From a virus, in the UHGV virus genome UHGV-2091730: a stretch of 12,210 nucleotides of DNA; one strand, given 5' to 3'. The first letter of the stretch is position 1, and each line of letters opens with the position of its first letter. Below the pieces are notes generated by a model that was not told the origin of the DNA, did no database searches, and saw nothing but the letters and a program-made list of their open reading frames with translations. Of this stretch, positions 1 to 12,210 are shown in pieces. A program made the translations under genes and the position numbers.

Positions 1-378
1 TTATTTCGAACAATCAGCATCCATCTCCAATCGGAGATCCAACACCATCAGCATACCCTCCACTACGCCCTCAGCTTTCTGAAGCATCCTGCCAACCCAA
101 CAATCAGATCGCCCATGCTTACGTGCAAGCGCCATAAAAGTCATGCCGCCGACATAATAGTCCACCAATAAATCATGCAAATCGCTGTTGTTCTTTTTCA
201 GACGGGCCATGCACCCGCAAATGATCATCGCGTCATCGTCACAACATTGTGGGCGAGATTTTACTTTTGAAGGAATTAATCCCTTAAAACCGGCGGCAAT
301 GGACGACCAGGTCACATCTTCATGATTATTAGCCGCCCACGCTCCCCAACGCTCAAGAACCATCTGAATATCACGCAT
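1..378 (-). CDS. Q: Late antiterminator Q, phage-82/DLP12 QuuD type
   Basis: Translation [24 protein letters not shown]... recognised as QuuD-like Q. ORF track starts at a TTG at 393; the ATG at 376-378 has a GGAG 8 nt upstream and is preferred. Stop TAA at 1-3. Confidence 0.8.
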
Positions 379-463
379 CAACTTACTCCACAAAACTCAG
401 ACCAGAACGCCAATTACAAGCAAAAATCAACAAAACAGTATTAGTTGATTGTTATCTCTGACT

Positions 464-586
464 TCATACTCCTGCTCCTGTCAGTGTTTTGGCGTAATTC
501 TTCAGTATTCGGTAATCGGTCAAAACAGAACCGGGGAAACGATATAAGCGCAGACGCCCCCAGCGGTGGCGAAGAAGTTCTGCCAT
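464..586 (-). CDS. ylcG: Small protein, YlcG-like (40 aa, MAELLRHRWGRLRLYRFPGSVLTDYRILKNYAKTLTGAGV)
   Basis: Hand-translated ORF between rusA and Q, where DLP12 carries ylcG. No clear Shine-Dalgarno; an in-frame TTG at 599-601 would give 45 aa. Confidence 0.35.
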   Translation of the reverse strand: MAELLRHRWGRLRLYRFPGSVLTDYRILKNYAKTLTGAGV

Positions 587-600
587 ATTAAACTCAAACA

Positions 601-963
601 TCATTCATTCCCCATTTCGGTGATGGTCAGTTCCAGCCTCCCACCTTTGGTAACAGGCATCTTCACAACGCGGTAATCAACGACCTGAGCATCATCCAGC
701 CAGAAACCTGCTTTAGTGAGTGCGTCAAAAGCGGCTTTTTGCAGATTATCCAGGTCACGGCGACGGCGATCCGGCATGTGGCACTCAATGCGGATTTTCA
801 CAGGCATAGCCAGGCCGATATCCAGCATTGCGTTTTTAATGATTCGGGCGACATTATCGCGGTATGCCTGCCCTTCTGCGCTGATGTGCGTGCGCCCTCG
901 ATTATGGCGGTAGTAGCGGTTATTGCTCGGCGGCCAGGGTAATGTGATGTGGTAAGTATTCAC
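601..963 (-). CDS. rusA: RusA Holliday-junction resolvase
   Basis: 120-aa translation [26 protein letters not shown]... is near-identical to E. coli RusA as recalled. GTG start overlaps the upstream stop (GTGA). Confidence 0.9.
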
Positions 964-1250
964 GCCTTAATTACCCCCTCTTTCAGCCAGATAACCTGCG
1001 TTCTCGCCATACCTTCCAGCGCGCATTCTTTTGCATATCCAGCGTCAACAAAATGCGTGCGGCGGTCGATTTCGTCGTGGCAGGCAGAACATGCAATGGT
1101 GGCAATCAGGTCTGGCGGTTTCGTACCGGTGCCGCACAATCCAGTCAGCCGGATATGTGCCAGTACAGACGTTTCAGGGTTGCCATTACATACGCCAGGG
1201 ATTCTTACCTGGCATTCCCGACCACGCGCTGCTTTTCTCAAATCAGCCAT
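960..1250 (-). CDS. ybcO: YbcO-like (DUF1364) putative Cys-rich nuclease
   Basis: Translation [34 protein letters not shown]... with several Cys/His. Start ATG at 1248-1250 has GGAGG 4 nt upstream; the track start at 1289 is likely too long. Position between ninE and rusA matches DLP12 order. Confidence 0.7.
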
Positions 1251-1413
1251 GACTCCTCCTTGCTGCCAGTCGCAACCATTTTTTATCAACCAGGCTGGCG
1301 GTATATCCGAGCAGTGTTGGTATTTCGGATGGCTTCAGCTCAGGTTTACGCTTACGACGATTTGGTACTCTGTAGATGTGTCCGTTCATGACACGAATAA
1401 GCGGTGTAGCCAT
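1243..1413 (-). CDS. ninE: NinE family protein (56 aa)
   Basis: [53 protein letters not shown] resembles the NinE basic motif. ATG at 1411-1413 has GGAGG 4 nt upstream and overlaps the upstream stop (TAATG). Confidence 0.7.
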   Translation of the reverse strand: MATPLIRVMNGHIYRVPNRRKRKPELKPSEIPTLLGYTASLVDKKWLRLAARRSHG

Positions 1414-1868
1414 TACGCCTCCTGCTTGTCGCGCAGCAGCTGAAACTCGCAGCTCTGTGGAATAGTCAGGTGGCAACCAATATTCATCGCCCAGGCTTCA
1501 ACCTTACACAGGAAGACATACATCTCTCCGGTATCAAGATCGGAGGTATGGCGTAACGACTGGATAGTGGTGATATCACCGGTTACGACATCAACCAGGT
1601 CTTTGGTTTCATAACCGAGATATGTGTGTTTGAGAGCATCTTTTACCCAAGCTGGAGTGGCGAACGTTTTACCCTTGCTGATGAGGTATTCACTGATTTC
1701 GCTGTACCACATGTGGCTGAGTGCATTCTGGGAAAGACTGCGTCTCTCGCGCCACGGTTTAAGCACCATGCGAAAGCATTTGCCGTCCTCCAGATAAGGT
1801 TGGATCTGCCGACCGATAGCGGTGAAGTTACCGCGATGCAGTTTGATGCCATCTTGTGGGAAGTTCAC
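1413..1868 (-). CDS. ybcN: NinB/YbcN family protein (151 aa)
   Basis: 151 aa with an S-L-S-Q-N...W motif like lambda NinB (SLDQNRKLW). GTG start with GGAGG upstream. Length and position match DLP12 YbcN as recalled. Confidence 0.7.
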
Positions 1869-1987
1869 GCTTCACCTCCGCAGAGATCAAACGCTGGATG
1901 CAAGATATCGCAGGTGCATTTCTGCATCTGTGAAGGGAGAAGAGAGTTTGGATTGTATGTGCGCATAAACGTCCCCGTTTAGCGCAG

Positions 1988-2020
1988 AAGTCACCGGAGG
2001 AGTTCAAACTCCGGTGACTT
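1988..2020. other. Perfect 12-bp inverted repeat (AAGTCACCGGAG / CTCCGGTGACTT) with 9-nt loop; stem-loop at the nin-block/cargo boundary
   Basis: Read directly from the sequence. No U-tract on either side, so not a canonical intrinsic terminator. Confidence 0.6.
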
Positions 2021-2089
2021 AATTATGACAAGTTGATTATTGAAAATCAAAAGTCATTTAAACAATAATGATACCCAGCAAGAGATTTC

Positions 2090-2491
2090 TTATTTTAACT
2101 CATAGATCAGACAGTCAACGATTTCTAAACCATTTACCATAGAATTAGAAACGCGAACTTTACCATCGTTGACTCTAGCAAATCCTTTTAACATTTTATA
2201 AATAAAAGCTGAATCCCCCTTAGCCTCAATTGCTTCTAATGGTATCGGCTTATACTTTTTTGATATGCTATTTCTATTTATCTCACTGATTTTTCTATAT
2301 ATTTCTGCCGGTCCACGTTCTGAGAAGTCACTGATAACTAAAATATATCTCCAAGATAGATCTGGGTAATAAAACCACATTGCAGCATCAATGGTTAAAT
2401 TCTGTAACTTGAGTTTTTTTAATAAAAATTGACCTGAGAATTCCATATCTTTTGTCAACTCTCTGCCGATTACCAGTGTGCTTTTACCCAT
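2090..2491 (-). CDS. Hypothetical protein (133 aa), downstream partner of the HEPN-like gene
   Basis: ATG at 2489-2491 with GGAG 8 nt upstream. Overlaps the upstream gene by 22 nt. About 30-35 percent GC by hand count. No family recognised. Confidence 0.6.
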   Translation of the reverse strand: MGKSTLVIGRELTKDMEFSGQFLLKKLKLQNLTIDAAMWFYYPDLSWRYILVISDFSERGPAEIYRKISEINRNSISKKYKPIPLEAIEAKGDSAFIYKMLKGFARVNDGKVRVSNSMVNGLEIVDCLIYELK

Positions 2492-2886
2492 TTCAAAACT
2501 CCAGAATTTTGGTCACCTACAGCATCAAACAATTGTTCGGCCATAGCTTTACTTATGTTATTGTCGTATCTAAATTGCTCGCTCCAGTCTTTAACGACCG
2601 ACCAGTTAATCTCCAACGAAACATCATTTTTTGCGTCAGCAATCAAAATTTGATGTAAGTTGGCAATTTTGAGAAGTTGCGACAAATCATGAGTATATGA
2701 ATCATTTACGACTTTTTTGTTTGGAAACTCATGTTGTAAAAATGACTTGGCAATACAGGCCTTCAATGCACATTCAACTGCATACCCACAAAGATAATAT
2801 GCACCATGAAAAAAGCCATGATCAAGCAAGCATTTGGCCTCATTAAGCCTAGTGTCAGATAATGCTTCAAGGTCGTTTTTATTCAT
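2470..2886 (-). CDS. HEPN-like domain protein (138 aa), putative toxin/effector of a two-gene module
   Basis: Motif order matches the classical HEPN pattern: GAYYLCGYAVECALKA, then THDL, then FRYD. Weak RBS. AT-rich. The domain call is pattern recognition only. Confidence 0.5.
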   Translation of the reverse strand: MNKNDLEALSDTRLNEAKCLLDHGFFHGAYYLCGYAVECALKACIAKSFLQHEFPNKKVVNDSYTHDLSQLLKIANLHQILIADAKNDVSLEINWSVVKDWSEQFRYDNNISKAMAEQLFDAVGDQNSGVLKWVKAHW

Positions 2887-3304
2887 ACAATTATAACTTG
2901 AATTATCCTAATTTTTATGATTATACCCTTATCAGGTATGATGTAGGAACTGAAAACAATATTGGATATCATTTTCGATATTTCTCTGCAAATTCCAGCC
3001 CACAGGATCTCGGTGTACAATCTGTCGCTGATCGCGCAAATTTAGGGTCAATCACTTCATTTTTTGCATCAAACCCTCACTAACATCGAACGATTATAGT
3101 ACAAGTAGTGTTCTTGACTTCTCATTAAACCGTCAGCATTCAATTAATTACAAAATACTAGCGGCATTTCTCTCCCGCAACTTTATTACAGCCGTTCAGA
3201 ACGTAAATGCGTCAATACTCGAATCAACTGATCATCCTGCCACGACTGAAATCTCAAATAGGCCGTTTCTCAAGTAAGAGATTTTGAATGCATTATTGGC
3301 TACT

Positions 3305-3333
3305 GAAATAAAAAACCCAGCGCCAACTGGGTT
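3305..3333 (-). terminator. Rho-independent terminator for the signal-peptide protein gene
   Basis: On the minus strand, a 7-bp stem (AACCCAG / CTGGGTT) with 6-nt loop followed by TTTTTATTT, about 20 nt past the stop at 3351. Confidence 0.6.
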
Positions 3334-3350
3334 CATATGAAATTTTTTTG

Positions 3351-3845
3351 TCATTTCCAATTGCAAGACTGTGAAATTTTTTCCACAACCTTATCAATCT
3401 CAGACAAGTCAAACTCAACTACTTGCATAGTTGATCCATAAGGTTCAAACCCAAAAATAGCTTTTTTATGCTTAGCCAAGGTCTTTATAAATTGTATTGG
3501 TTGTGGAGCAAATGCAGAATCACCGCCTTCCCCACCACCCCAAACACTCTTGACCGGCTTTCCGCCATCTAACCGCACTGTAATTCTTGGGTTGTCCGAA
3601 CCCATATAATCATTGAATGATAAATAGGCATCTGTTTTGTTATCACTACAACGCAACACCAGTGAAGTTGCACGATCAGTACCTGCTTTGTTATATGAAT
3701 CTGGTGATAAATTAAGAGCCACAAAGTCAGTCTGGTCAGTCATTTTATTTATCTCAGACTTTGTTATCCACGGCCCTAACTTCTCTACACCAGCATTTGC
3801 TGTAAACGAGGCACTTATGACAAAGGCTAAAATAAATTTTCTCAT
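3351..3845 (-). CDS. Secreted/periplasmic protein of unknown function (164 aa) with N-terminal signal peptide
   Basis: N-terminus MRKFILAFVISASFTANA is a Sec signal peptide with no lipobox. AGGAGA 7 nt upstream of the ATG. Own terminator. Two Cys in the mature part. AT-rich. Confidence 0.7.
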   Translation of the reverse strand: MRKFILAFVISASFTANAGVEKLGPWITKSEINKMTDQTDFVALNLSPDSYNKAGTDRATSLVLRCSDNKTDAYLSFNDYMGSDNPRITVRLDGGKPVKSVWGGGEGGDSAFAPQPIQFIKTLAKHKKAIFGFEPYGSTMQVVEFDLSEIDKVVEKISQSCNWK

Positions 3846-3991
3846 AACCCTATCTCCTTGGCTTCAAAGAACTAAATATTATCAAGTCTCTTGCCACTAG
3901 AAAACCCACTTTATTTCCAAACTCTGATGGCATTCCTGAAAATCCGCTTCATACTCACTTGCCCCGCCCTATCATCCTGAGTAGCTAACCG

Positions 3992-4165
3992 TTAAACAAA
4001 CGTTCGCCAGACCTTACCATCAATGACCAGGATTCCTGCACGCGCCATTTTAGCTGCTGCCTGATTTATGCAGGTTACTGTCACACCTGTTGCCGCAGCA
4101 ACGTCCTGCGCACAGAAGCTCTTATGCGTCCCCAGGTAATAAATAATTGCCTCTTTGCCCGTCAT
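3992..4165 (-). CDS. ren: Ren-like protein, apparently short (57 aa) compared with lambda Ren
   Basis: Hand translation MTGKEAIIYYLGTHKSFCAQDVAAATGVTVTCINQAAAKMARAGILVIDGKVWRTFV matches the lambda Ren N-terminus as recalled. ATG overlaps the P stop (ATGA). The ORF ends where the AT-rich cargo begins. Confidence 0.6.
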   Translation of the reverse strand: MTGKEAIIYYLGTHKSFCAQDVAAATGVTVTCINQAAAKMARAGILVIDGKVWRTFV

Positions 4166-4863
4166 ACACTTGCTCCTTTCAGCCCAAACTTAGCTTTGAT
4201 TTCTGCGATCTTCGCCAGAGCCTGTGCACGATTTAGAGGTCTACCGCCCATGACAGGAAGCTGTTTTACTGGTTCAGGTATCGCCTCACCACGGTTAATT
4301 CGCGCGGTCATACAGGACAGTTCATCGGCAGCCTTGCGCCGTAATTCCGCATCAGTAAGCGCATTGGCCCGCATGTTCTGGTACAGGTTGGTAACCAGCC
4401 AGTAATGCGCGTTCGATTTCCACGGATAAGACTCTGCATCCGGATACAGGCCACGCTTCCGGCAATACTCGTAAACCATATCAACCAGCTCGCTGACGTT
4501 TGGCAGCCCGGCGTTAACGGATGCTTCTTCCCGGCACCAGGCGACAAACTGCCCGGGTGATGGCAGGAATGGTCGATTCTGCCGACGGGCTACGCGCATT
4601 CCTGCGTTAACCTGTTCCATTGTGGTGATCCCGTTTTCCCGGAAAGCCAGAACCCACTGGCGGCGGATTTCGTTCAGTTCATTCTGGTCACGGTTAGCCA
4701 GGCTCGCCGGGAAAGTTGCCAGTAACTGGCTGAACACACCGTTGATGATCTGCGCTACCTGCTGTACCTGCGGCTTTTCGTCGTACTGTTCCGGCATGTT
4801 GTTGGCGATCCGACGCATCTGCTCACGGTCAAAGTTAACCATCTGTGCGGCGATGTTTTTCAT
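4162..4863 (-). CDS. P: Replication protein P (DnaB helicase loader), lambda type
   Basis: 233-aa translation MKNIAAQMVNFDREQMRRIANNMPEQYDEK... recognised as lambda P. ATG overlaps the O stop (ATGA). Confidence 0.92.
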   Translation of the reverse strand: MKNIAAQMVNFDREQMRRIANNMPEQYDEKPQVQQVAQIINGVFSQLLATFPASLANRDQNELNEIRRQWVLAFRENGITTMEQVNAGMRVARRQNRPFLPSPGQFVAWCREEASVNAGLPNVSELVDMVYEYCRKRGLYPDAESYPWKSNAHYWLVTNLYQNMRANALTDAELRRKAADELSCMTARINRGEAIPEPVKQLPVMGGRPLNRAQALAKIAEIKAKFGLKGASV

Positions 4864-5354
4864 AAATCCATCCCGTAAATCCAGTCAGTGTTTGTCAGGT
4901 CGAGTTTTGGTTTTCTGGCTGTCACGCCAGCCTGTTGCTTGTTACGGTTGATTTCGAGCTGGGTCCACTTGTCGCGGAGTTTAGCCGGACTCAGCACGTT
5001 ACCGGACCAGAAGTTGTCCTGGCATGCCCAGCGGAACAGCACGCACATGTCGCGGTGGTTACGTCCATCACGTTCACGCATCAGGCGGATATCGTTAGCC
5101 CACCCTGCAAAATTCGGTTTTCTGGCTGATGGCGCGATGGTCTTCACCATGTCAAACATCCACTCTGCGGCGGTCAGGTCTTCTGCTGTCCCCCACTTGC
5201 TGCCGCTCTGAATTGCAGCATCCGATTTCATCACAGGAAGATCGTTTTCTGGCTGGTCAGAGGATTCGTCAGAATTCTCGGACGAAAAAGGTTTTATATT
5301 GTCTTTTGTTAGTTTGTCTTTTGTGTTTACCTGATTCGGGTACCTGGACTGCAT
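4860..5354 (-). pseudogene. O: Replication initiator O, C-terminal fragment only; N-terminal domain and ori iterons absent
   Basis: From LTKDNIKPFSSENSDESSDQPEND onward it matches the lambda O C-terminal half. The first ATG has a TAG two codons upstream and no RBS. The AT-rich ori-proximal segment and GAATTC (5272-5277) are kept, but no iterons. Confidence 0.8.
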
Positions 5355-5542
5355 CAGCTAATTTACGCGGACGACTTTATCTGCACCGCGGCATCGAGCG
5401 CACTTATACCCGTGATTTGCTCGTGGAAGTTTTTCTCGACGGACGCGGTAACGGCCTGAATCACTAATCCCCTTTCCTGTTTTCCTATTCAGCCTGGCAT
5501 TTCGCGGGCGATATTTTCACAGCCATTTTCAGGAGTTCAGCC

Positions 5543-5839
5543 ATGAACGCTTATTACATTCAGGATCGTCTTGAGGCTCAGAGCTGGGCGCGTCACTACC
5601 AGCAGATCGCCCATGAAGAGAAAGAGGCAGAACTGGCAGACGACATGGAAAAAGGCCTGCCCCAGCACCTGTTTGAATCACTCTGTATCGATCATTTGCA
5701 ACGCTGCGGGGCCAGCAAAAAAGCCATTACCCGTGCGTTTGATGACGATGTTGAGTTTCAGGAGCGCATGGCAGAACACATCCGGTACATGGTTGAAACC
5801 ATTGCTCACCACCAGGTTGATATTGATTCAGAGGTATAA
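5543..5839 (+). CDS. gam: Gam (RecBCD inhibitor), short 98-aa form
   Basis: [54 protein letters not shown]... recognised as lambda Gam. An in-frame TAA at 5465-5467 rules out the long form. Confidence 0.92.
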
Positions 5840-5844
5840 AACGG

Positions 5845-6630
5845 ATGAGTACAGCACTCGCAACGCTGGCAGGGAAGCTGGCTGAACGTGTCGGCATGGA
5901 TTCTGTCGACCCACAGGAACTGATCACCACTCTTCGCCAGACGGCATTTAAAGGTGATGCCAGCGATGCGCAGTTCATCGCATTGTTGATCGTCGCCAAC
6001 CAGTACGGCCTTAATCCGTGGACGAAAGAAATTTACGCCTTCCCTGATAAGCAGAACGGCATCGTTCCGGTGGTGGGCGTTGATGGCTGGTCCCGCATCA
6101 TCAACGAAAACCAGCAGTTTGACGGCATGGACTTTGAACAGGACAACGAATCCTGCACATGCCGGATTTACCGCAAAGACCGCAATCATCCGATCTGCGT
6201 TACCGAATGGATGGATGAATGCCGCCGCGAACCATTCAAAACCCGCGAAGGCAGAGAAATCACGGGGCCGTGGCAGTCGCATCCCAAACGGATGTTACGG
6301 CATAAAGCCATGATTCAGTGTGCCCGTCTGGCCTTCGGATTTGCTGGTATCTATGACAAGGATGAAGCCGAGCGCATTGTCGAAAATACCGCATACACTG
6401 CAGAACGTCAGCCGGAACGCGACATCACTCCGGTTAACGATGAAACCATGCAGGAGATTAACACTCTGCTGATCGCCCTGGATAAAACATGGGATGACGA
6501 CTTATTGCCGCTCTGTTCCCAGGTATTTCGCCGCGACATTCGCGCATCGTCAGAACTGACACAGGCCGAAGCAGTGAAAGCTCTTGGATTCCTGAAACAG
6601 AAAGCCACTGAGCAGAAGGTGGCAGCATGA
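5845..6630 (+). CDS. bet: Bet (Red-beta single-strand annealing protein)
   Basis: 261-aa translation [59 protein letters not shown]... recognised as lambda Bet. Confidence 0.95.
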
Positions 6631-7307
6631 CACCGGACATTATCCTGCAGCGTACCGGGATCGACGTGAGAGCTGTCGAACAAGGGGATGATGCATGGCA
6701 CAAATTACGGCTCGGCGTCATCACCGCTTCAGAAGTTCACAACGTGATAGCAAAGCCCCGCTCAGGAAAGAAGTGGCCTGACATGAAAATGTCCTACTTC
6801 CACACCCTGCTGGCTGAGGTTTGCACCGGTGTGGCTCCGGAAGTTAATGCTAAGGCGCTGGCATGGGGAAAACAGTACGAGAACGACGCCAGAACCCTGT
6901 TTGAGTTCACTTCCGGCGTGAATGTTATTGAATCCCCGATCATCTATCGCGACGAAAGTATGCGTACCGCCTGCTCTCCCGATGGTTTATGCAGTGACGG
7001 CAATGGCCTTGAGCTGAAATGCCCGTTTACCTCCCGGGATTTCATGAAGTTCCGGCTCGGTGGTTTCGAGGCCATAAAGTCGGCTTACATGGCCCAGGTG
7101 CAGTACAGCATGTGGGTGACACGAAAAGATGCCTGGTACTTTGCCAACTATGACCCGCGGATGAAGCGTGAAGGACTGCATTATGTCGTGGTTGAGCGGG
7201 ATGAAAAGTACATGGCGAGTTTTGACGAGATGGTGCCGGAGTTCATCGAAAAAATGGACGAGGCACTGGCTGAAATTGGTTTTGTATTTGGGGAGCAATG
7301 GCGATGA
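6627..7307 (+). CDS. exo: Exo (lambda 5'-3' exonuclease, Red-alpha)
   Basis: 226-aa translation [50 protein letters not shown]... recognised as lambda Exo. Overlaps the bet stop by 4 nt. Confidence 0.95.
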
Positions 7308-8262: not shown

Positions 8263-8414
8263 GCGAAATTAACTAGAAGCCAAAGATAAAATCATCGCTG
8301 AGCAGGAGAAAATCGCTAACGGAGAAAAGACAGTAAGTCAGTATATGAAAACCGCATGATATCATCAGATAAAAATCGATCGTAAAGCGAAATATTCATA
8401 CCAGAATAAACGAG

Positions 8415-8438
8415 TCGAGGTAAATTATATTACCTCGA
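8415..8438 (-). terminator. Possible terminator hairpin downstream of the membrane-protein gene
   Basis: 8-bp inverted repeat TCGAGGTA / TACCTCGA with 8-nt loop, followed on the minus strand by a modestly T-rich stretch. Weak. Confidence 0.3.
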
Positions 8439-8472
8439 TAAATTAACTAAAACTTGCCCGCTATATACTATC

Positions 8473-9075
8473 TCATTCAGTATCATCACGCGCGGTCTGT
8501 GCATATGTCACTACCGCACCTAATGTATTAATTTTCTTTTCAACATAGATAATATTATCGTACTCATAATTGCCATACGGATAGCAAATGCGAATATTCT
8601 CATGTAGATCGGGGTCATCCACCTCAGCTCCAGAACAACTTTTTGAACTACCGGAAGTATACCGATACGGTGCAACATAAGACGATGTCTCTCCAGGCAA
8701 AAAATAAGTTAGTGTTGTAAGGGGTATAATCAGAAAAAATCCAGAAAATATGCATATCCCTGCATAAACCTTAAGGTATGCTGACAGACTCTTCCAGCCG
8801 CTTTGTTTTACTATCCCCTTCTTAACCCAAAACAGAGATAACAGAAAAGCTATTCCCATGCTAAACAGAATGTAATAGTGGGATATACTCTGATTAAGAA
8901 ACGTGACCCTGTAGATATCTGCCCGCCACCAGAAGAAAAGGAAAATAAAGATCAGCCCTGAAACTGTCATGCAAATCAAATAAGGATACGAATCTTTTTT
9001 CATGTTTAGCGCCCATAAAATTTTTCCTGACCCGGACAAATTTACCATCCATTTTTTGCGCAGAAAATAGCTCAT
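8473..9075 (-). CDS. Integral membrane protein of unknown function (200 aa; three predicted TM helices, about 60-aa soluble C-terminal tail)
   Basis: Long ORF on the strand opposite to all flanking phage genes. About 35 percent GC by hand count. Hydrophobic stretches LICMTVSGLIFIFLFFWW, YYILFSMGIAFLLSLFWV, VYAGICIFSGFFLIIPLTTLTYFL. Start uncertain: no strong RBS at any in-frame ATG. Confidence 0.6.
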   Translation of the reverse strand: MSYFLRKKWMVNLSGSGKILWALNMKKDSYPYLICMTVSGLIFIFLFFWWRADIYRVTFLNQSISHYYILFSMGIAFLLSLFWVKKGIVKQSGWKSLSAYLKVYAGICIFSGFFLIIPLTTLTYFLPGETSSYVAPYRYTSGSSKSCSGAEVDDPDLHENIRICYPYGNYEYDNIIYVEKKINTLGAVVTYAQTARDDTE

Positions 9076-9317
9076 TACTTACTGCACAATAATACACAAA
9101 ATTGCGTAAATTTTTTGCATGGATTTTAGCTCTTTCAGCCGACATTTAAGGGGTAAATAGCATTTCCTAAAAGCAACTGCACCAACCCAACAGAATGGGC
9201 TACCGCTTACGTTGAGAGCAAAAAAGTGTATAGCAGCAATGAACAGCATCCTCGCACTGACGAGGATTTCTTTTATCTGAACTCGCTACGGCGGGTTTTG
9301 TTTTATGGAGATGATAA

Positions 9318-9485
9318 ATGCACTTCCGAGTCACAGGTGAATGGAATGGAGAACCATTCAACAGAGTTATCGAAGCCGAGAACATCAGCGACTGCTATGA
9401 CCACTGGATGCTGTGGGCGCAGATAGCACATGCAGACGTAACCAATATTCGAATTGAAGAACTGAAAGAACACCAAGCCGCCTGA
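9318..9485 (+). CDS. 55-aa hypothetical protein (MHFRVTGEWNGEPFNRVIEAENISDCYDHWMLWAQIAHADVTNIRIEELKEHQAA), conserved lambda ORF just upstream of xis
   Basis: GGAG 7 nt upstream of the ATG. Stop lies inside the terminator loop. Same 39-nt spacing to xis as the equivalent lambda ORF, from memory. Confidence 0.6.
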   Translation: MHFRVTGEWNGEPFNRVIEAENISDCYDHWMLWAQIAHADVTNIRIEELKEHQAA

Positions 9486-9524: not shown

Positions 9525-9743
9525 ATGTACTTGACACTTCAGGAGTGGAACGCACGCCAGCGACGCCCAAGAAGCCTTGAAACAGTTCGTCGATGGGTAC
9601 GCGAGTGCAGGATATTCCCACCTCCGGTTAAGGATGGAAGAGAGTATCTGTTCCACGAATCAGCGGTAAAGGTTGACTTAAATCGACCAGTAACAGGTAG
9701 CCTTTTGAAGAGGATCAGAAATGGGAAGAAGGCGAAGTCATGA
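9525..9743 (+). CDS. xis: Excisionase Xis
   Basis: 72-aa translation MYLTLQEWNARQRRPRSLETVRRWVRECRIFPPPVKDGREYLFHESAVKVDLNRPVTGSLLKRIRNGKKAKS recognised as lambda Xis. 23-nt overlap with int. Confidence 0.95.
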   Translation: MYLTLQEWNARQRRPRSLETVRRWVRECRIFPPPVKDGREYLFHESAVKVDLNRPVTGSLLKRIRNGKKAKS

Positions 9744-10791
9744 GCGCCGGGATTTACCCCCTAACCTTTATATAAGAAACAATGGATATTACTGCTACAG
9801 GGACCCAAGGACGGGTAAAGAGTTTGGATTAGGCAGAGACAGGCGAATCGCAATCACTGAAGCTATACAGGCCAACATTGAGTTATTTTCAGGACACAAA
9901 CACAAGCCTCTGACAGCGAGAATCAACAGTGATAATTCCGTTACGTTACATTCATGGCTTGATCGCTACGAAAAAATCCTGGCCAGCAGAGGAATCAAAC
10001 AGAAGACACTCATAAATTACATGAGCAAAATTAAAGCAATAAGGAGGGGTCTGCCTGATGCTCCACTTGAAGACATCACCACAAAAGAAATTGCGGCAAT
10101 GCTCAATGGATACATAAACGAGGGCAAGGCGGCGTCAGCCAAGTTAATCAGATCAACACTGAGCGATGCATTCCGAGAGGCAATAGCTGAAGGCCATATA
10201 ACAACAAACCCTGTCGCTGCCACTCGCGCAGCAAAATCAGAGGTAAGGAGATCAAGACTTACGGCTGACGAATACCTGAAAATTTATCAAGCAGCAGAAT
10301 CATCACCATGTTGGCTCAGACTTGCAATGGAACTGGCTGTTGTTACCGGGCAACGAGTTGGTGATTTATGCGAAATGAAGTGGTCTGATATCGTAGATGG
10401 ATATCTTTATGTCGAGCAAAGCAAAACAGGCGTAAAAATTGCCATCCCAACAGCATTGCATGTTGATGCTCTCGGAATATCAATGAAGGAAACACTTGAT
10501 AAATGCAAAGAGATTCTTGGCGGAGAAACCATAATTGCATCTACTCGTCGCGAACCGCTTTCATCCGGCACAGTATCAAGGTATTTTATGCGCGCACGAA
10601 AAGCATCAGGTCTTTCCTTCGAAGGGGATCCGCCTACCTTTCACGAGTTGCGCAGTTTGTCTGCAAGACTCTATGAGAAGCAGATAAGCGATAAGTTTGC
10701 TCAACATCTTCTCGGGCATAAGTCGGACACCATGGCATCACAGTATCGTGATGACAGAGGCAGGGAGTGGGACAAAATTGAAATCAAATAA
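9721..10791 (+). CDS. int: Integrase Int (tyrosine recombinase), lambda type
   Basis: 356-aa translation MGRRRSHERRDLPPNLYIRNNGYYCYRDPRTGKEFGLGRDRRIAITEAIQ... recognised as lambda Int. Confidence 0.97.
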   Translation: MGRRRSHERRDLPPNLYIRNNGYYCYRDPRTGKEFGLGRDRRIAITEAIQANIELFSGHKHKPLTARINSDNSVTLHSWLDRYEKILASRGIKQKTLINYMSKIKAIRRGLPDAPLEDITTKEIAAMLNGYINEGKAASAKLIRSTLSDAFREAIAEGHITTNPVAATRAAKSEVRRSRLTADEYLKIYQAAESSPCWLRLAMELAVVTGQRVGDLCEMKWSDIVDGYLYVEQSKTGVKIAIPTALHVDALGISMKETLDKCKEILGGETIIASTRREPLSSGTVSRYFMRARKASGLSFEGDPPTFHELRSLSARLYEKQISDKFAQHLLGHKSDTMASQYRDDRGREWDKIEIK

Positions 10792-10926: not shown

Positions 10927-12210
10927 GTGAACACATTTTCAGTTTCCCGTCTGGCGCTGGCATTGGCTTTTGGCGTGACGCTGACCGCCTGTAGCTCAAC
11001 CCCGCCCGATCAACGTCCTTCTGATCAAACCGCGCCTGGTACCTCTTCTCGCCCGATTCTGTCGGCAAAAGAAGCGCAGAATTTCGATGCTCAACACTAT
11101 TTTGCATCCCTGACACCAGGTGCTGCAGCGTGGAATCCTTCCCCGATTACCCTGCCTGCGCAACCTGAATTTGTTGTCGGCCCGGCGGGCACTCAAGGTG
11201 TAACGCATACCACGATTCAGGCGGCGGTAGATGCGGCAATTATCAAGCGTACCAACAAGCGCCAGTATATTGCCGTGATGCCTGGTGAGTATCAGGGAAC
11301 GGTATATGTCCCTGCCGCTCCGGGTGGAATTACTCTGTACGGTACAGGTGAAAAACCGATTGATGTGAAGATTGGGCTTTCCCTTGATGGTGGCATGAGC
11401 CCTGCCGACTGGCGTCACGACGTCAACCCGCGCGGCAAATATATGCCAGGTAAACCAGCGTGGTATATGTACGATAGCTGCCAGAGCAAACGCAGCGACA
11501 GTATCGGTGTTCTCTGCTCTGCGGTCTTCTGGTCACAAAACAATGGCCTGCAACTGCAAAATCTGACCATCGAAAACACGCTGGGCGATAGCGTAGATGC
11601 AGGTAACCATCCGGCGGTGGCACTGCGTACTGATGGTGACCAGGTACAGATTAACAACGTTAACATTCTCGGTCGTCAGAACACCTTCTTTGTCACCAAC
11701 AGCGGTGTGCAGAACCGTCTGGAAACGAATCGTCAGCCGCGTACGCTGGTGACCAACAGCTACATTGAAGGGGATGTGGATATCGTTTCTGGTCGCGGCG
11801 CAGTGGTGTTCGATAACACCGAATTCCGCGTGGTGAACTCACGTACTCAGCAAGAAGCGTATGTGTTTGCACCGGCTACGCTGTCCAACATTTACTACGG
11901 TTTCCTCGCCGTAAACAGCCGTTTCAATGCTTTCGGTGATGGTGTGGCGCAACTGGGCCGCTCGCTGGATGTTGATGCCAATACCAACGGTCAGGTGGTG
12001 ATCCGTGATAGCGCCATCAACGAAGGTTTTAACACGGCTAAACCGTGGGCCGATGCGGTGATCTCTAATCGTCCGTTTGCGGGTAATACCGGCAGCGTAG
12101 ATGATAACGACGAAATACAGCGCAATCTGAATGACACTAACTACAACCGCATGTGGGAATACAATAACCGCGGCGTGGGTAGTAAAGTGGTTGCAGAGGC
12201 GAAGAAGTAA
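10927..12210 (+). CDS. ybhC: Host outer-membrane lipoprotein YbhC (pectinesterase-like / putative acyl-CoA thioesterase), 427 aa
   Basis: GTG start with GGAG 6 nt upstream. Signal peptide with lipobox LTAC. Sequence recognised as E. coli YbhC, which flanks the lambda attachment site. Confidence 0.85.
   Translation: MNTFSVSRLALALAFGVTLTACSSTPPDQRPSDQTAPGTSSRPILSAKEAQNFDAQHYFASLTPGAAAWNPSPITLPAQPEFVVGPAGTQGVTHTTIQAAVDAAIIKRTNKRQYIAVMPGEYQGTVYVPAAPGGITLYGTGEKPIDVKIGLSLDGGMSPADWRHDVNPRGKYMPGKPAWYMYDSCQSKRSDSIGVLCSAVFWSQNNGLQLQNLTIENTLGDSVDAGNHPAVALRTDGDQVQINNVNILGRQNTFFVTNSGVQNRLETNRQPRTLVTNSYIEGDVDIVSGRGAVVFDNTEFRVVNSRTQQEAYVFAPATLSNIYYGFLAVNSRFNAFGDGVAQLGRSLDVDANTNGQVVIRDSAINEGFNTAKPWADAVISNRPFAGNTGSVDDNDEIQRNLNDTNYNRMWEYNNRGVGSKVVAEAKK

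Follow-up and report, generated by a model that had tools for sequence, protein, structure and literature searches.

What is the small AT-rich gene that lies between ren and ninB in the lambdoid prophage of UHGV virus genome UHGV-2091730, and what might it do for the cell that carries it? The stretch we analysed (the window) is 12,210 nucleotides (nt) long, and the gene is on its minus strand. Our answer to the first question is that it very probably forms an autonomous moron of about 0.6 kb, made up of a predicted extended −10 promoter, a ribosome-binding site (RBS), an open reading frame (ORF) of 164 amino acids (aa) and a terminator, and that this unit was horizontally acquired into the ren-ninB hotspot. 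The second question has a more tentative answer, for which the product, a member of the VasI/TagO domain family, has to be described together with the places where its gene is found. The parts of the unit are as follows.

3351..3845, minus strand: ORF of 164 aa plus stop codon; phrog_1848 (annotated as of unknown function), RefSeq WP_001224618.1
3853..3859, minus strand: Shine-Dalgarno sequence AAGGAGA, by direct reading, separated by 7 nt from the ATG at 3843-3845
3304..3334, minus strand: predicted intrinsic terminator, with stem GAACCCAGT, loop TGGC and stem GCTGGGTTT, then a T-run
3876..3884, minus strand: predicted extended −10 element TGATAATAT, by reading of the sequence, 30 nt upstream of the ATG
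3792..3845, minus strand: Sec-type signal peptide MRKFILAFVISASFTANA, codons 1-18, from the homologue alignment (n = 25) and the predicted local distance difference test (pLDDT)
3354..3791, minus strand: mature protein of 146 aa, 16.1 kDa and pI 5.9, the C-terminal domain of the VasI/TagO family
3273..3920, minus strand: mobile low-GC cassette, with a sharp downstream edge at 3272/3273 and an upstream edge between 3886 and 3920

The median ratio of nonsynonymous to synonymous substitutions (dN/dS) was 0.10 across 192 homologue pairs (46 distinct alleles), an approximate figure because many dS values are near saturation; the reading frame is therefore real and under selection. Its product begins with MRKFILAFVISASFTANA followed by GVEKLG. 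The sequence-only reading had described the gene as AT-rich, with a strong Shine-Dalgarno sequence and a hairpin plus U-tract terminator, and all three descriptions hold. GC content is 0.392 in the ORF and 0.381 in the whole cassette, as against 0.52-0.53 in the flanks (0.53 in O/P and 0.516 in ninB-rusA). The terminator stem has 9 bp and starts 16 nt past the stop codon, with stem-loop and T-run reaching from 3334 to 3313/3304, and it is the sole terminator-like site in 1900-4300. A hairpin with a T-run also follows the gene in 29/32 unique downstream contexts of homologues, compared with a background of 4 per cent. The stems of these homologous terminators vary yet stay paired, as CCCAG/CTGGG, CCCGC/GCGGG, CCTCGC/GCGGGG and CCCTCC/GGAGGG.

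Upstream of the gene, the −35 region that accompanies TGATAATAT is weak (TTTCTA, with a 16-nt spacer). The −10 element itself recurs: the motif TGn(1-2)TAnnAT was present 38-46 nt before the start codon in 37/42 unique upstream contexts of homologues, while only 1.3 per cent of random 45-nt segments from the same loci contained it. It reads TGATAATAT in the window and mostly TGnTAGGAT in the other contexts, and four of the five exceptions keep TAGGAT or a one-base variant of it (TACTCT). Where homologues sit in tail modules, the motif is intergenic and often stands right behind the terminator of the preceding cargo gene. Such a pattern points to a predicted extended −10 promoter whose −35 region is weak.

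The unit is mobile, and its borders can be read from its relatives. A blastn comparison with phage IdasGreatGrand, which alone among cultured phages has a near-identical copy, gave a match over window positions 3273-4300 and divergence downstream of 3273. The neighbouring HEPN module, where it occurs without the gene in genomes of Shiga toxin-producing E. coli (STEC), stops at window position 3271, and genomes with the TagO-like gene alone start to match at 3193-3273. The downstream edge of the cassette, at 3272/3273, is thus sharp. On the other side, similarity to phage PhiR26_1, which has an intact ren, ends at 3921, and the gene is absent from phages with an intact ren. Each of the forty IMG/VR copies with at least 98 per cent identity shows the same order, namely P, ren remnant, gene, variable DNA and NinB.

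The other forty IMG/VR loci, with 55-81 per cent identity, place the gene elsewhere, between the tail-assembly chaperone (DUF6246) and the tape measure of a siphophage family. Chaperone and/or tape-measure markers were on the expected side in 39/40 of the homologues at no more than 81 per cent identity, which belong to phages of Klebsiella, Enterobacter, Serratia and Pantoea, and thirteen loci from assemblies of Klebsiella, Pantoea, Serratia and others use the chaperone-tape measure slot likewise. In this slot, 55-65 nt usually separate the end of the gene from the start of the tape measure. Occupancy of this slot is facultative: only one of fourteen contigs with a related chaperone (58-99 per cent identical) carries the gene. 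In some Klebsiella and Serratia prophages the slot (5-8 kb) holds a multi-gene cargo island, its genes parted by terminators and including KilA-N, DUF2335, a YafO-like toxin and Arc with a P22-type antirepressor, an arrangement reminiscent of the P22 immI/sieA region.

Altogether the cassette was found in 84/5426 complete E. coli genomes (about 1.5 per cent) and in phages of at least five further enterobacterial genera; species-representative genomes yielded three loci only, too few for taxonomic statistics. Judged by base composition, context and the predicted terminator, the gene is a moron in the sense of Juhala and Hendrix (PMC3594210), with variable presence in different contexts, deviant base composition and a predicted terminator of its own. 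The sequence-only reading had proposed a self-contained moron from the ORF, RBS and terminator; what now stands behind that proposal is a unit of predicted promoter, RBS, ORF and terminator that is facultative in two unrelated phage hotspots.

Two E. coli genomes hold the cassette or a part of it in other settings. One cassette copy in strain SZQ1 is on a 43,337-bp replicon that was counted as a plasmid (NZ_CP174001.1) and may be an excised or circular phage genome, or a phage-plasmid. Strain 2018-05-2CC has a 321-bp fragment (NZ_AP027877.1, 1379524-1379844) that matches window positions 3273-3594 with 96 per cent identity; it comprises the 3′ end of the gene and the terminator, and adjoins D-serine ammonia-lyase, outside the usual prophage context.

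The profile searches that the sequence-only reading proposed as a check reveal a known family that it had missed (Pfam PF11319, VasI; TagO in RefSeq). RefSeq/PGAP names WP_001224618.1 ‘type VI secretion system-associated protein TagO’, so the protein is already catalogued. As a single sequence, the protein matches PF11319 with 26.7 bits (E = 5.3e-06), its residues 56-163 aligning with positions 78-184 of the profile; this score is marginal given the gathering threshold of 26.5 bits. A precomputed PF11319 match was present in 21/30 homologues among those listed. A profile built from twenty-five homologues retrieved 3829 cluster representatives at E ≤ 1e-3, and all of the forty that we sampled were PF11319 members. 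When the phage-type profile was aligned by hhalign with forty PF11319-positive proteins, the probability was 100 per cent (E = 9e-50) over 148 columns. By this profile alignment, the mature phage protein is the VasI C-terminal domain.

What the phage protein lacks is the front of the family. It begins, once mature, at the equivalent of about position 50 of the PF11319 profile, and the canonical N-terminal C...RLxC(Y/F)D segment (profile positions of about 1-50) is absent in all twenty-five phage-type sequences. The equivalog model TIGR03360 scores 14.4 bits (E = 0.026), below its curated cut-off of 124.2 bits, because of this absent segment. We also found no type VI secretion system (T6SS) cluster around the gene: eighty IMG/VR loci and thirteen genome or metagenome loci were all in phage slots, and this genomic context rules out membership of a T6SS locus. 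Because the gene is neither a TIGR03360 equivalog nor T6SS-associated by context, the RefSeq name TagO is a homology label that overstates what is known.

The VasI domain is itself not confined to T6SSs. It occurs fused to cytochrome c, Sel1/TPR, DUF2939 and zinc-ribbon/transmembrane modules, and these partners offer no mechanistic clue other than ‘periplasmic module’. In some large bacterial proteins a zinc ribbon, a transmembrane segment and a VasI domain share a single chain, which suggests a membrane-spanning signalling or anchoring architecture. P2-like phages (Peduoviridae) have a 297-aa VasI-domain protein together with a zinc-ribbon protein of about 110 aa between ogr and int/att (coordinates 4235-5465, 4202-5432 and ~5001-5429 in three loci), and further VasI-domain proteins were found in Brucella, Pasteurella and Acinetobacter phages.

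VCA0118/VasI of V. cholerae V52, the only member with data on T6SS activity, is predicted to be exported and is dispensable for secretion of Hcp and VgrG, yet required for killing (PMC3166118). Since killing needs VasI and Hcp/VgrG secretion does not, VasI would act at the envelope-crossing step of this tail-like machine. T6SS-2 clusters of E. coli have a tagO of their own (PMC10562709).

The phage protein would be exported too. Its signal peptide consists of an n-region (MRK), a 10-residue hydrophobic core with a mean Kyte-Doolittle value of 2.46 and A-N-A at −3/−1. A signal peptide is kept in 25/25 aligned homologues, conserved in type and not in sequence, and in the AlphaFold2 (AF2) model pLDDT falls below 50 in residues 1-17 only. 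The Sec signal peptide is thus as the sequence-only reading described it, and from these sequence features we infer export by Sec and cleavage by signal peptidase I after Ala18. The mature product would be a soluble periplasmic protein. A lipoprotein is ruled out by the absence of a lipobox; the Cys12 of some homologues is inside the hydrophobic core and too near the N-terminus.

Two cysteines and a WGGGEGG loop had also been pointed out in the mature protein, and both features proved conserved. C66 and C161 are invariant across the phage subfamily and have an invariant counterpart pair in canonical VasI; they probably form a disulfide. In the loop, W102 and E106 are invariant and G107/G108 are conserved in at least 90 per cent of sequences, while AF2 is poorly confident there. 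Across genera, 44 residues are invariant. The model predicts a beta-rich, IalB-like fold for the mature protein. Among PDB sequences, phmmer gave chance matches only (E ≥ 0.15). A structure search of BFVD showed that the model resembles uncharacterised proteins of lytic T4-like phages, namely D9IC73 of phage RB16, D5JF58 of KP15 and V9LYR6 of Vibrio phage VH7D (Foldseek E of 1e-5 to 3e-3, with 12-16 per cent identity). They offer no lead on function, but the fold is therefore commoner in phages than sequence searches reveal.

The sequence-only reading had listed a periplasmic inhibitor and an immunity protein among the possible functions. These candidates receive no support, as neither sequence nor fold searches gave any likeness to the families of periplasmic lysozyme inhibitors and T6SS immunity proteins (Ivy, PliC/MliC, PliG, Tsi/Tai). 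Nor was there homology to a known defence or exclusion family (no PADLOC match for the target, and no relevant match in PDB). A virion structural component, which the same reading had named as the finding that would speak against a moron, is ruled out by the predicted export, by the facultative presence of the gene among near-identical tail modules and by its non-tail location in E. coli.

Around the gene, the window holds the following features.

3897..4165, minus strand: ren pseudogene, Ren-like (phrog_142), frameshifted with an internal stop in RefSeq; it bounds the ren-ninB cargo hotspot on the upstream side
2090-2886, minus strand: HEPN pair, GC 0.35, a 138-aa HEPN protein and a 133-aa partner overlapping by 22 nt
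Minus strand: O fragment, P, ren, the target gene, the HEPN pair, ninB and rusA
5543-7307: exo/bet/gam
9525-10791: int/xis

Alignment to an intact ren shows a premature TAA at codon 58 (ORF 3992-4165) and then a 1-nt deletion, and a diverged remnant of the ren 3′ end reaches to about 3885-3897. The earlier placement of the gene where the 3′ end of ren would be was imprecise: the cassette does abut the ren remnant, but ren was not replaced by it, the decayed gene lying upstream. IdasGreatGrand has the same decayed allele, so the loss of ren predates the prophage of the window and travels with the TagO-like cassette. The ren-ninB slot of PhiR26_1 holds an annotated anti-phage gene, PD-lambda-1 (1193-2695 of its locus), and on this account we regard the slot as a hotspot for defence genes and other cargo.

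The 138-aa protein of the HEPN pair matches Pfam HEPN (3e-06) and, weakly, the PADLOC model PDC-M28A (1.8e-07); its 133-aa partner (phrog_5760) has no family match. The pair is an independent module: many STEC genomes (O157, O26, O111) have it, beside a P22AR antirepressor-like gene, and lack the TagO-like gene. Both modules were together in 8/5426 complete E. coli genomes and in 2/40 of the IMG/VR loci with copies at 98 per cent identity or more. Each is widespread alone, and on this co-occurrence we reject functional pairing of the gene with the HEPN and 133-aa genes. The sequence-only reading had rightly treated the gene as a transcription unit separate from the HEPN cassette, the same unit recurring without that pair; its further suggestion that the two may work together is not supported, given these counts and the sharp junction at 3272/3273.

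The prophage as a whole occupies the lambda attB site and adjoins ybhC (10927-12210, plus strand), the plus strand of the window being the lambda minus strand. Positions 19-5342 share 98.7 per cent identity with a prophage carried by E. coli strain 10, in which the neighbours of the gene are P, ren, the HEPN pair and ninB, and which also has bor. Relative to that prophage, 2.84 kb is gone from the window, with the junction at about 5339-5342 (strain-10 locus coordinates 11143-13984). The deletion takes out the N-terminal half of O, a cII-like/YdaT gene, cro, an S24-type cI repressor and the region upstream of kil, and it joins the C-terminal half of O (ORF 4860-5354) with the sequence immediately upstream of gam (5543). 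The early promoter pR has been lost as well. Because of this deletion, the prophage is a defective, non-inducible remnant without immunity genes or pR. Expression from a ‘repressed’ prophage, as the sequence-only reading put it, therefore does not describe this one, which lacks a repressor, cI and cro having gone with the deleted 2.84 kb. With pR absent, a promoter of the gene’s own matters more here than usual.

An Rfam scan at gathering thresholds gave no match anywhere in the window. Between the early-left genes and xis lies another low-GC segment (8275-9437, GC 0.37-0.41) without counterpart in the strain-10 prophage. Its ORF at 8473-9075 (minus strand) encodes 200 aa with several hydrophobic stretches, of which the C-terminal 88 residues alone match a PHROG (phrog_1416, annotated as of unknown function), and the segment may be another moron.

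What, then, might the gene do for its host? Its own predicted promoter would allow synthesis in a lysogen, where expression would be constitutive. The reading that we prefer, with a probability of roughly 0.35, is that the product may be a periplasmic module that shields the lysogen from envelope-crossing injection devices, most likely through superinfection exclusion. It would be a module that binds a conserved component of the envelope, and so make the lysogen refractory to machines that inject across the envelope. The most likely form would be exclusion of incoming phage genomes at the periplasmic stage, comparable in position and logic with HK97 gp15, and protection from T6SS attack could be another. 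Three things lead us to exclusion. The slot that the family mainly uses is also that of HK97 gene 15; in relatives, defence genes (PD-lambda-1) occupy the E. coli slot, which here has the HEPN pair; and the one homologue that has been characterised acts where a machine resembling a phage tail penetrates. The position of distant VasI-domain genes, as cargo on the attachment-site side of P2-like phages, adds to this.

A number of observations weigh against it. The exclusion idea is drawn from position and analogy alone, the protein having no homology to a superinfection-exclusion factor, and strong purifying selection with so many invariant residues would be atypical for an arms-race factor directed at variable phage proteins; such conservation fits a conserved host target better. 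The cargo slots hold non-defence genes as well (antirepressors, KilA-N and the YafO toxin). The only characterised phenotype of the family is pro-T6SS and not protective (PMC3166118), a 2026 review lists the function of TagO/VasI as unknown (PMC13584744) and our literature searches on VasI, TagO, VCA0118, DUF3121 and prophage TagO found no study of phage-borne copies. On the structural side, confidence in the AF2 model is moderate, with loops at pLDDT 57-76, and Foldseek against PDB returned nothing at E ≤ 0.001 and thus no solved relative. Expression is touched as well, in that the −35 region is poor and a two-hexamer consensus promoter scan made no call for the gene’s promoter; the scan missed the extended −10 element because it demands a good −35.

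The family name invites a different account, in which the minimal TagO/VasI domain plugs into the T6SS of the host and either boosts killing or, lacking the N-terminal segment, acts as a dominant negative. The genera that host the family commonly carry T6SSs. The domain is a genuine VasI C-terminal domain, VasI is needed for killing in V. cholerae (PMC3166118) and a resident tagO is present in E. coli T6SS-2 (PMC10562709), but more than ninety loci are all in phage slots and none is in a T6SS cluster, the TIGR03360 cut-off is failed with the C..RLxCYD segment missing and the varied fusions show that the domain is not T6SS-specific. We consider such a modulator unlikely. A conversion factor for host fitness or virulence, with no part in anti-phage or T6SS activity, would change the envelope in the manner of IalB (adhesion or invasion) or Bor (stress or serum resistance), and we hold this to be doubtful too. 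If the gene served the phage’s own life cycle instead, late read-through from the tail operon might yield a protein that conditions the envelope before lysis or blocks injection by progeny into lysing cells; the gene would then not be one that lysogens express. Most homologues are indeed on the tail-operon strand, 55-65 nt before the tape measure, and structurally similar proteins are present in the lytic T4-like phages RB16 and KP15. Opposed to this are the facultative presence of the gene among near-identical tail modules, its retention of a predicted promoter and terminator of its own, the location of the E. coli copy in the early-right region, well away from the genes for tail and lysis, and its persistence in a non-inducible prophage remnant; an exported protein, moreover, cannot enter cytoplasmic tail assembly. 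This leaves a life-cycle role quite improbable.

The exclusion reading can also be stated more boldly. In this form, which strikes us as rather unlikely, a bare VasI/TagO C-terminal domain would have been captured as a mobile periplasmic shield of Enterobacterales temperate phages, blocking the periplasmic step of phage genome injection, of T6SS penetration or of both. Lysogens would make it constitutively, and its target would be either a conserved component of the envelope or the tip of an approaching tail-like machine. If true, this would be a new class of exclusion factor and would give the VasI/TagO/IalB-like fold its first molecular function, a question open since 2011.

Morons are the main way in which prophages alter their hosts, most of them have no known function and this cassette provides a clean test case. 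New here are the identity of the product with the VasI C-terminal domain, the mobility of its gene between two slots, the promoter motif and terminator that travel with it and its independence from the HEPN pair. The family is large (more than 3800 cluster representatives) and exported, and the best known of its members are VasI/TagO, which affects killing, and IalB, which is related in structure and affects invasion. If the minimal phage version had a phenotype, for which T6SS-free E. coli K-12 allows a test, this would inform the whole family, and ‘T6SS-associated protein TagO’, the name in RefSeq, would prove misleading where phage copies are concerned.

Among known systems, VasI/TagO (PF11319, formerly DUF3121; TIGR03360; VCA0118; tagO of T6SS-2) is closest, sharing a homologous C-terminal domain of about 148 aa, the motifs RC..NKT(D/E), PY..FD and C.W, the invariant cysteine pair and a signal peptide. 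The phage protein differs from it in lacking an N-terminal segment of about 40-50 aa, in residing in phage cargo slots and in the subfamily motifs NKMTDxTD, GFEPYGSTMQ and GGEGGD. The VasI cargo of P2-like phages (e.g. Escherichia phage 500465-2 gp38, 297 aa) likewise has a C-terminal VasI domain, with 25-28 per cent identity, and is prophage-end cargo; it is nearly twice as long owing to an N-terminal extension, always stands behind a zinc-ribbon gene and belongs to Peduoviridae. With IalB (PF06776; PDB 3DTD) the likeness is one of predicted fold, at 9 per cent identity and without a profile match (a Pfam scan at E ≤ 0.1 gives VasI only), and IalB is alphaproteobacterial and chromosomal. The lambdoid morons bor, lom and cor are low in GC, independently transcribed (as predicted for our gene) and encode exported products. 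Two of them encode lipoproteins (Bor and Cor) and the third an outer-membrane barrel (Lom), whereas the target has neither lipobox nor barrel and is unrelated in sequence. HK97 gene 15, the first moron described, is expressed from the prophage, and its YebO-like product blocks genome injection (PMC3594210). It shares with the family of our gene the slot between chaperone and tape measure, deviant base composition and, as predicted features on our side, a promoter and terminator of its own within the late operon and a product located in the envelope (PMC3594210). However, gp15 is a small inner-membrane protein, while the phage VasI-like product is modelled as a soluble, beta-rich periplasmic domain; the two have no kinship in sequence or fold, and exclusion, demonstrated for gp15, is hypothesised here.

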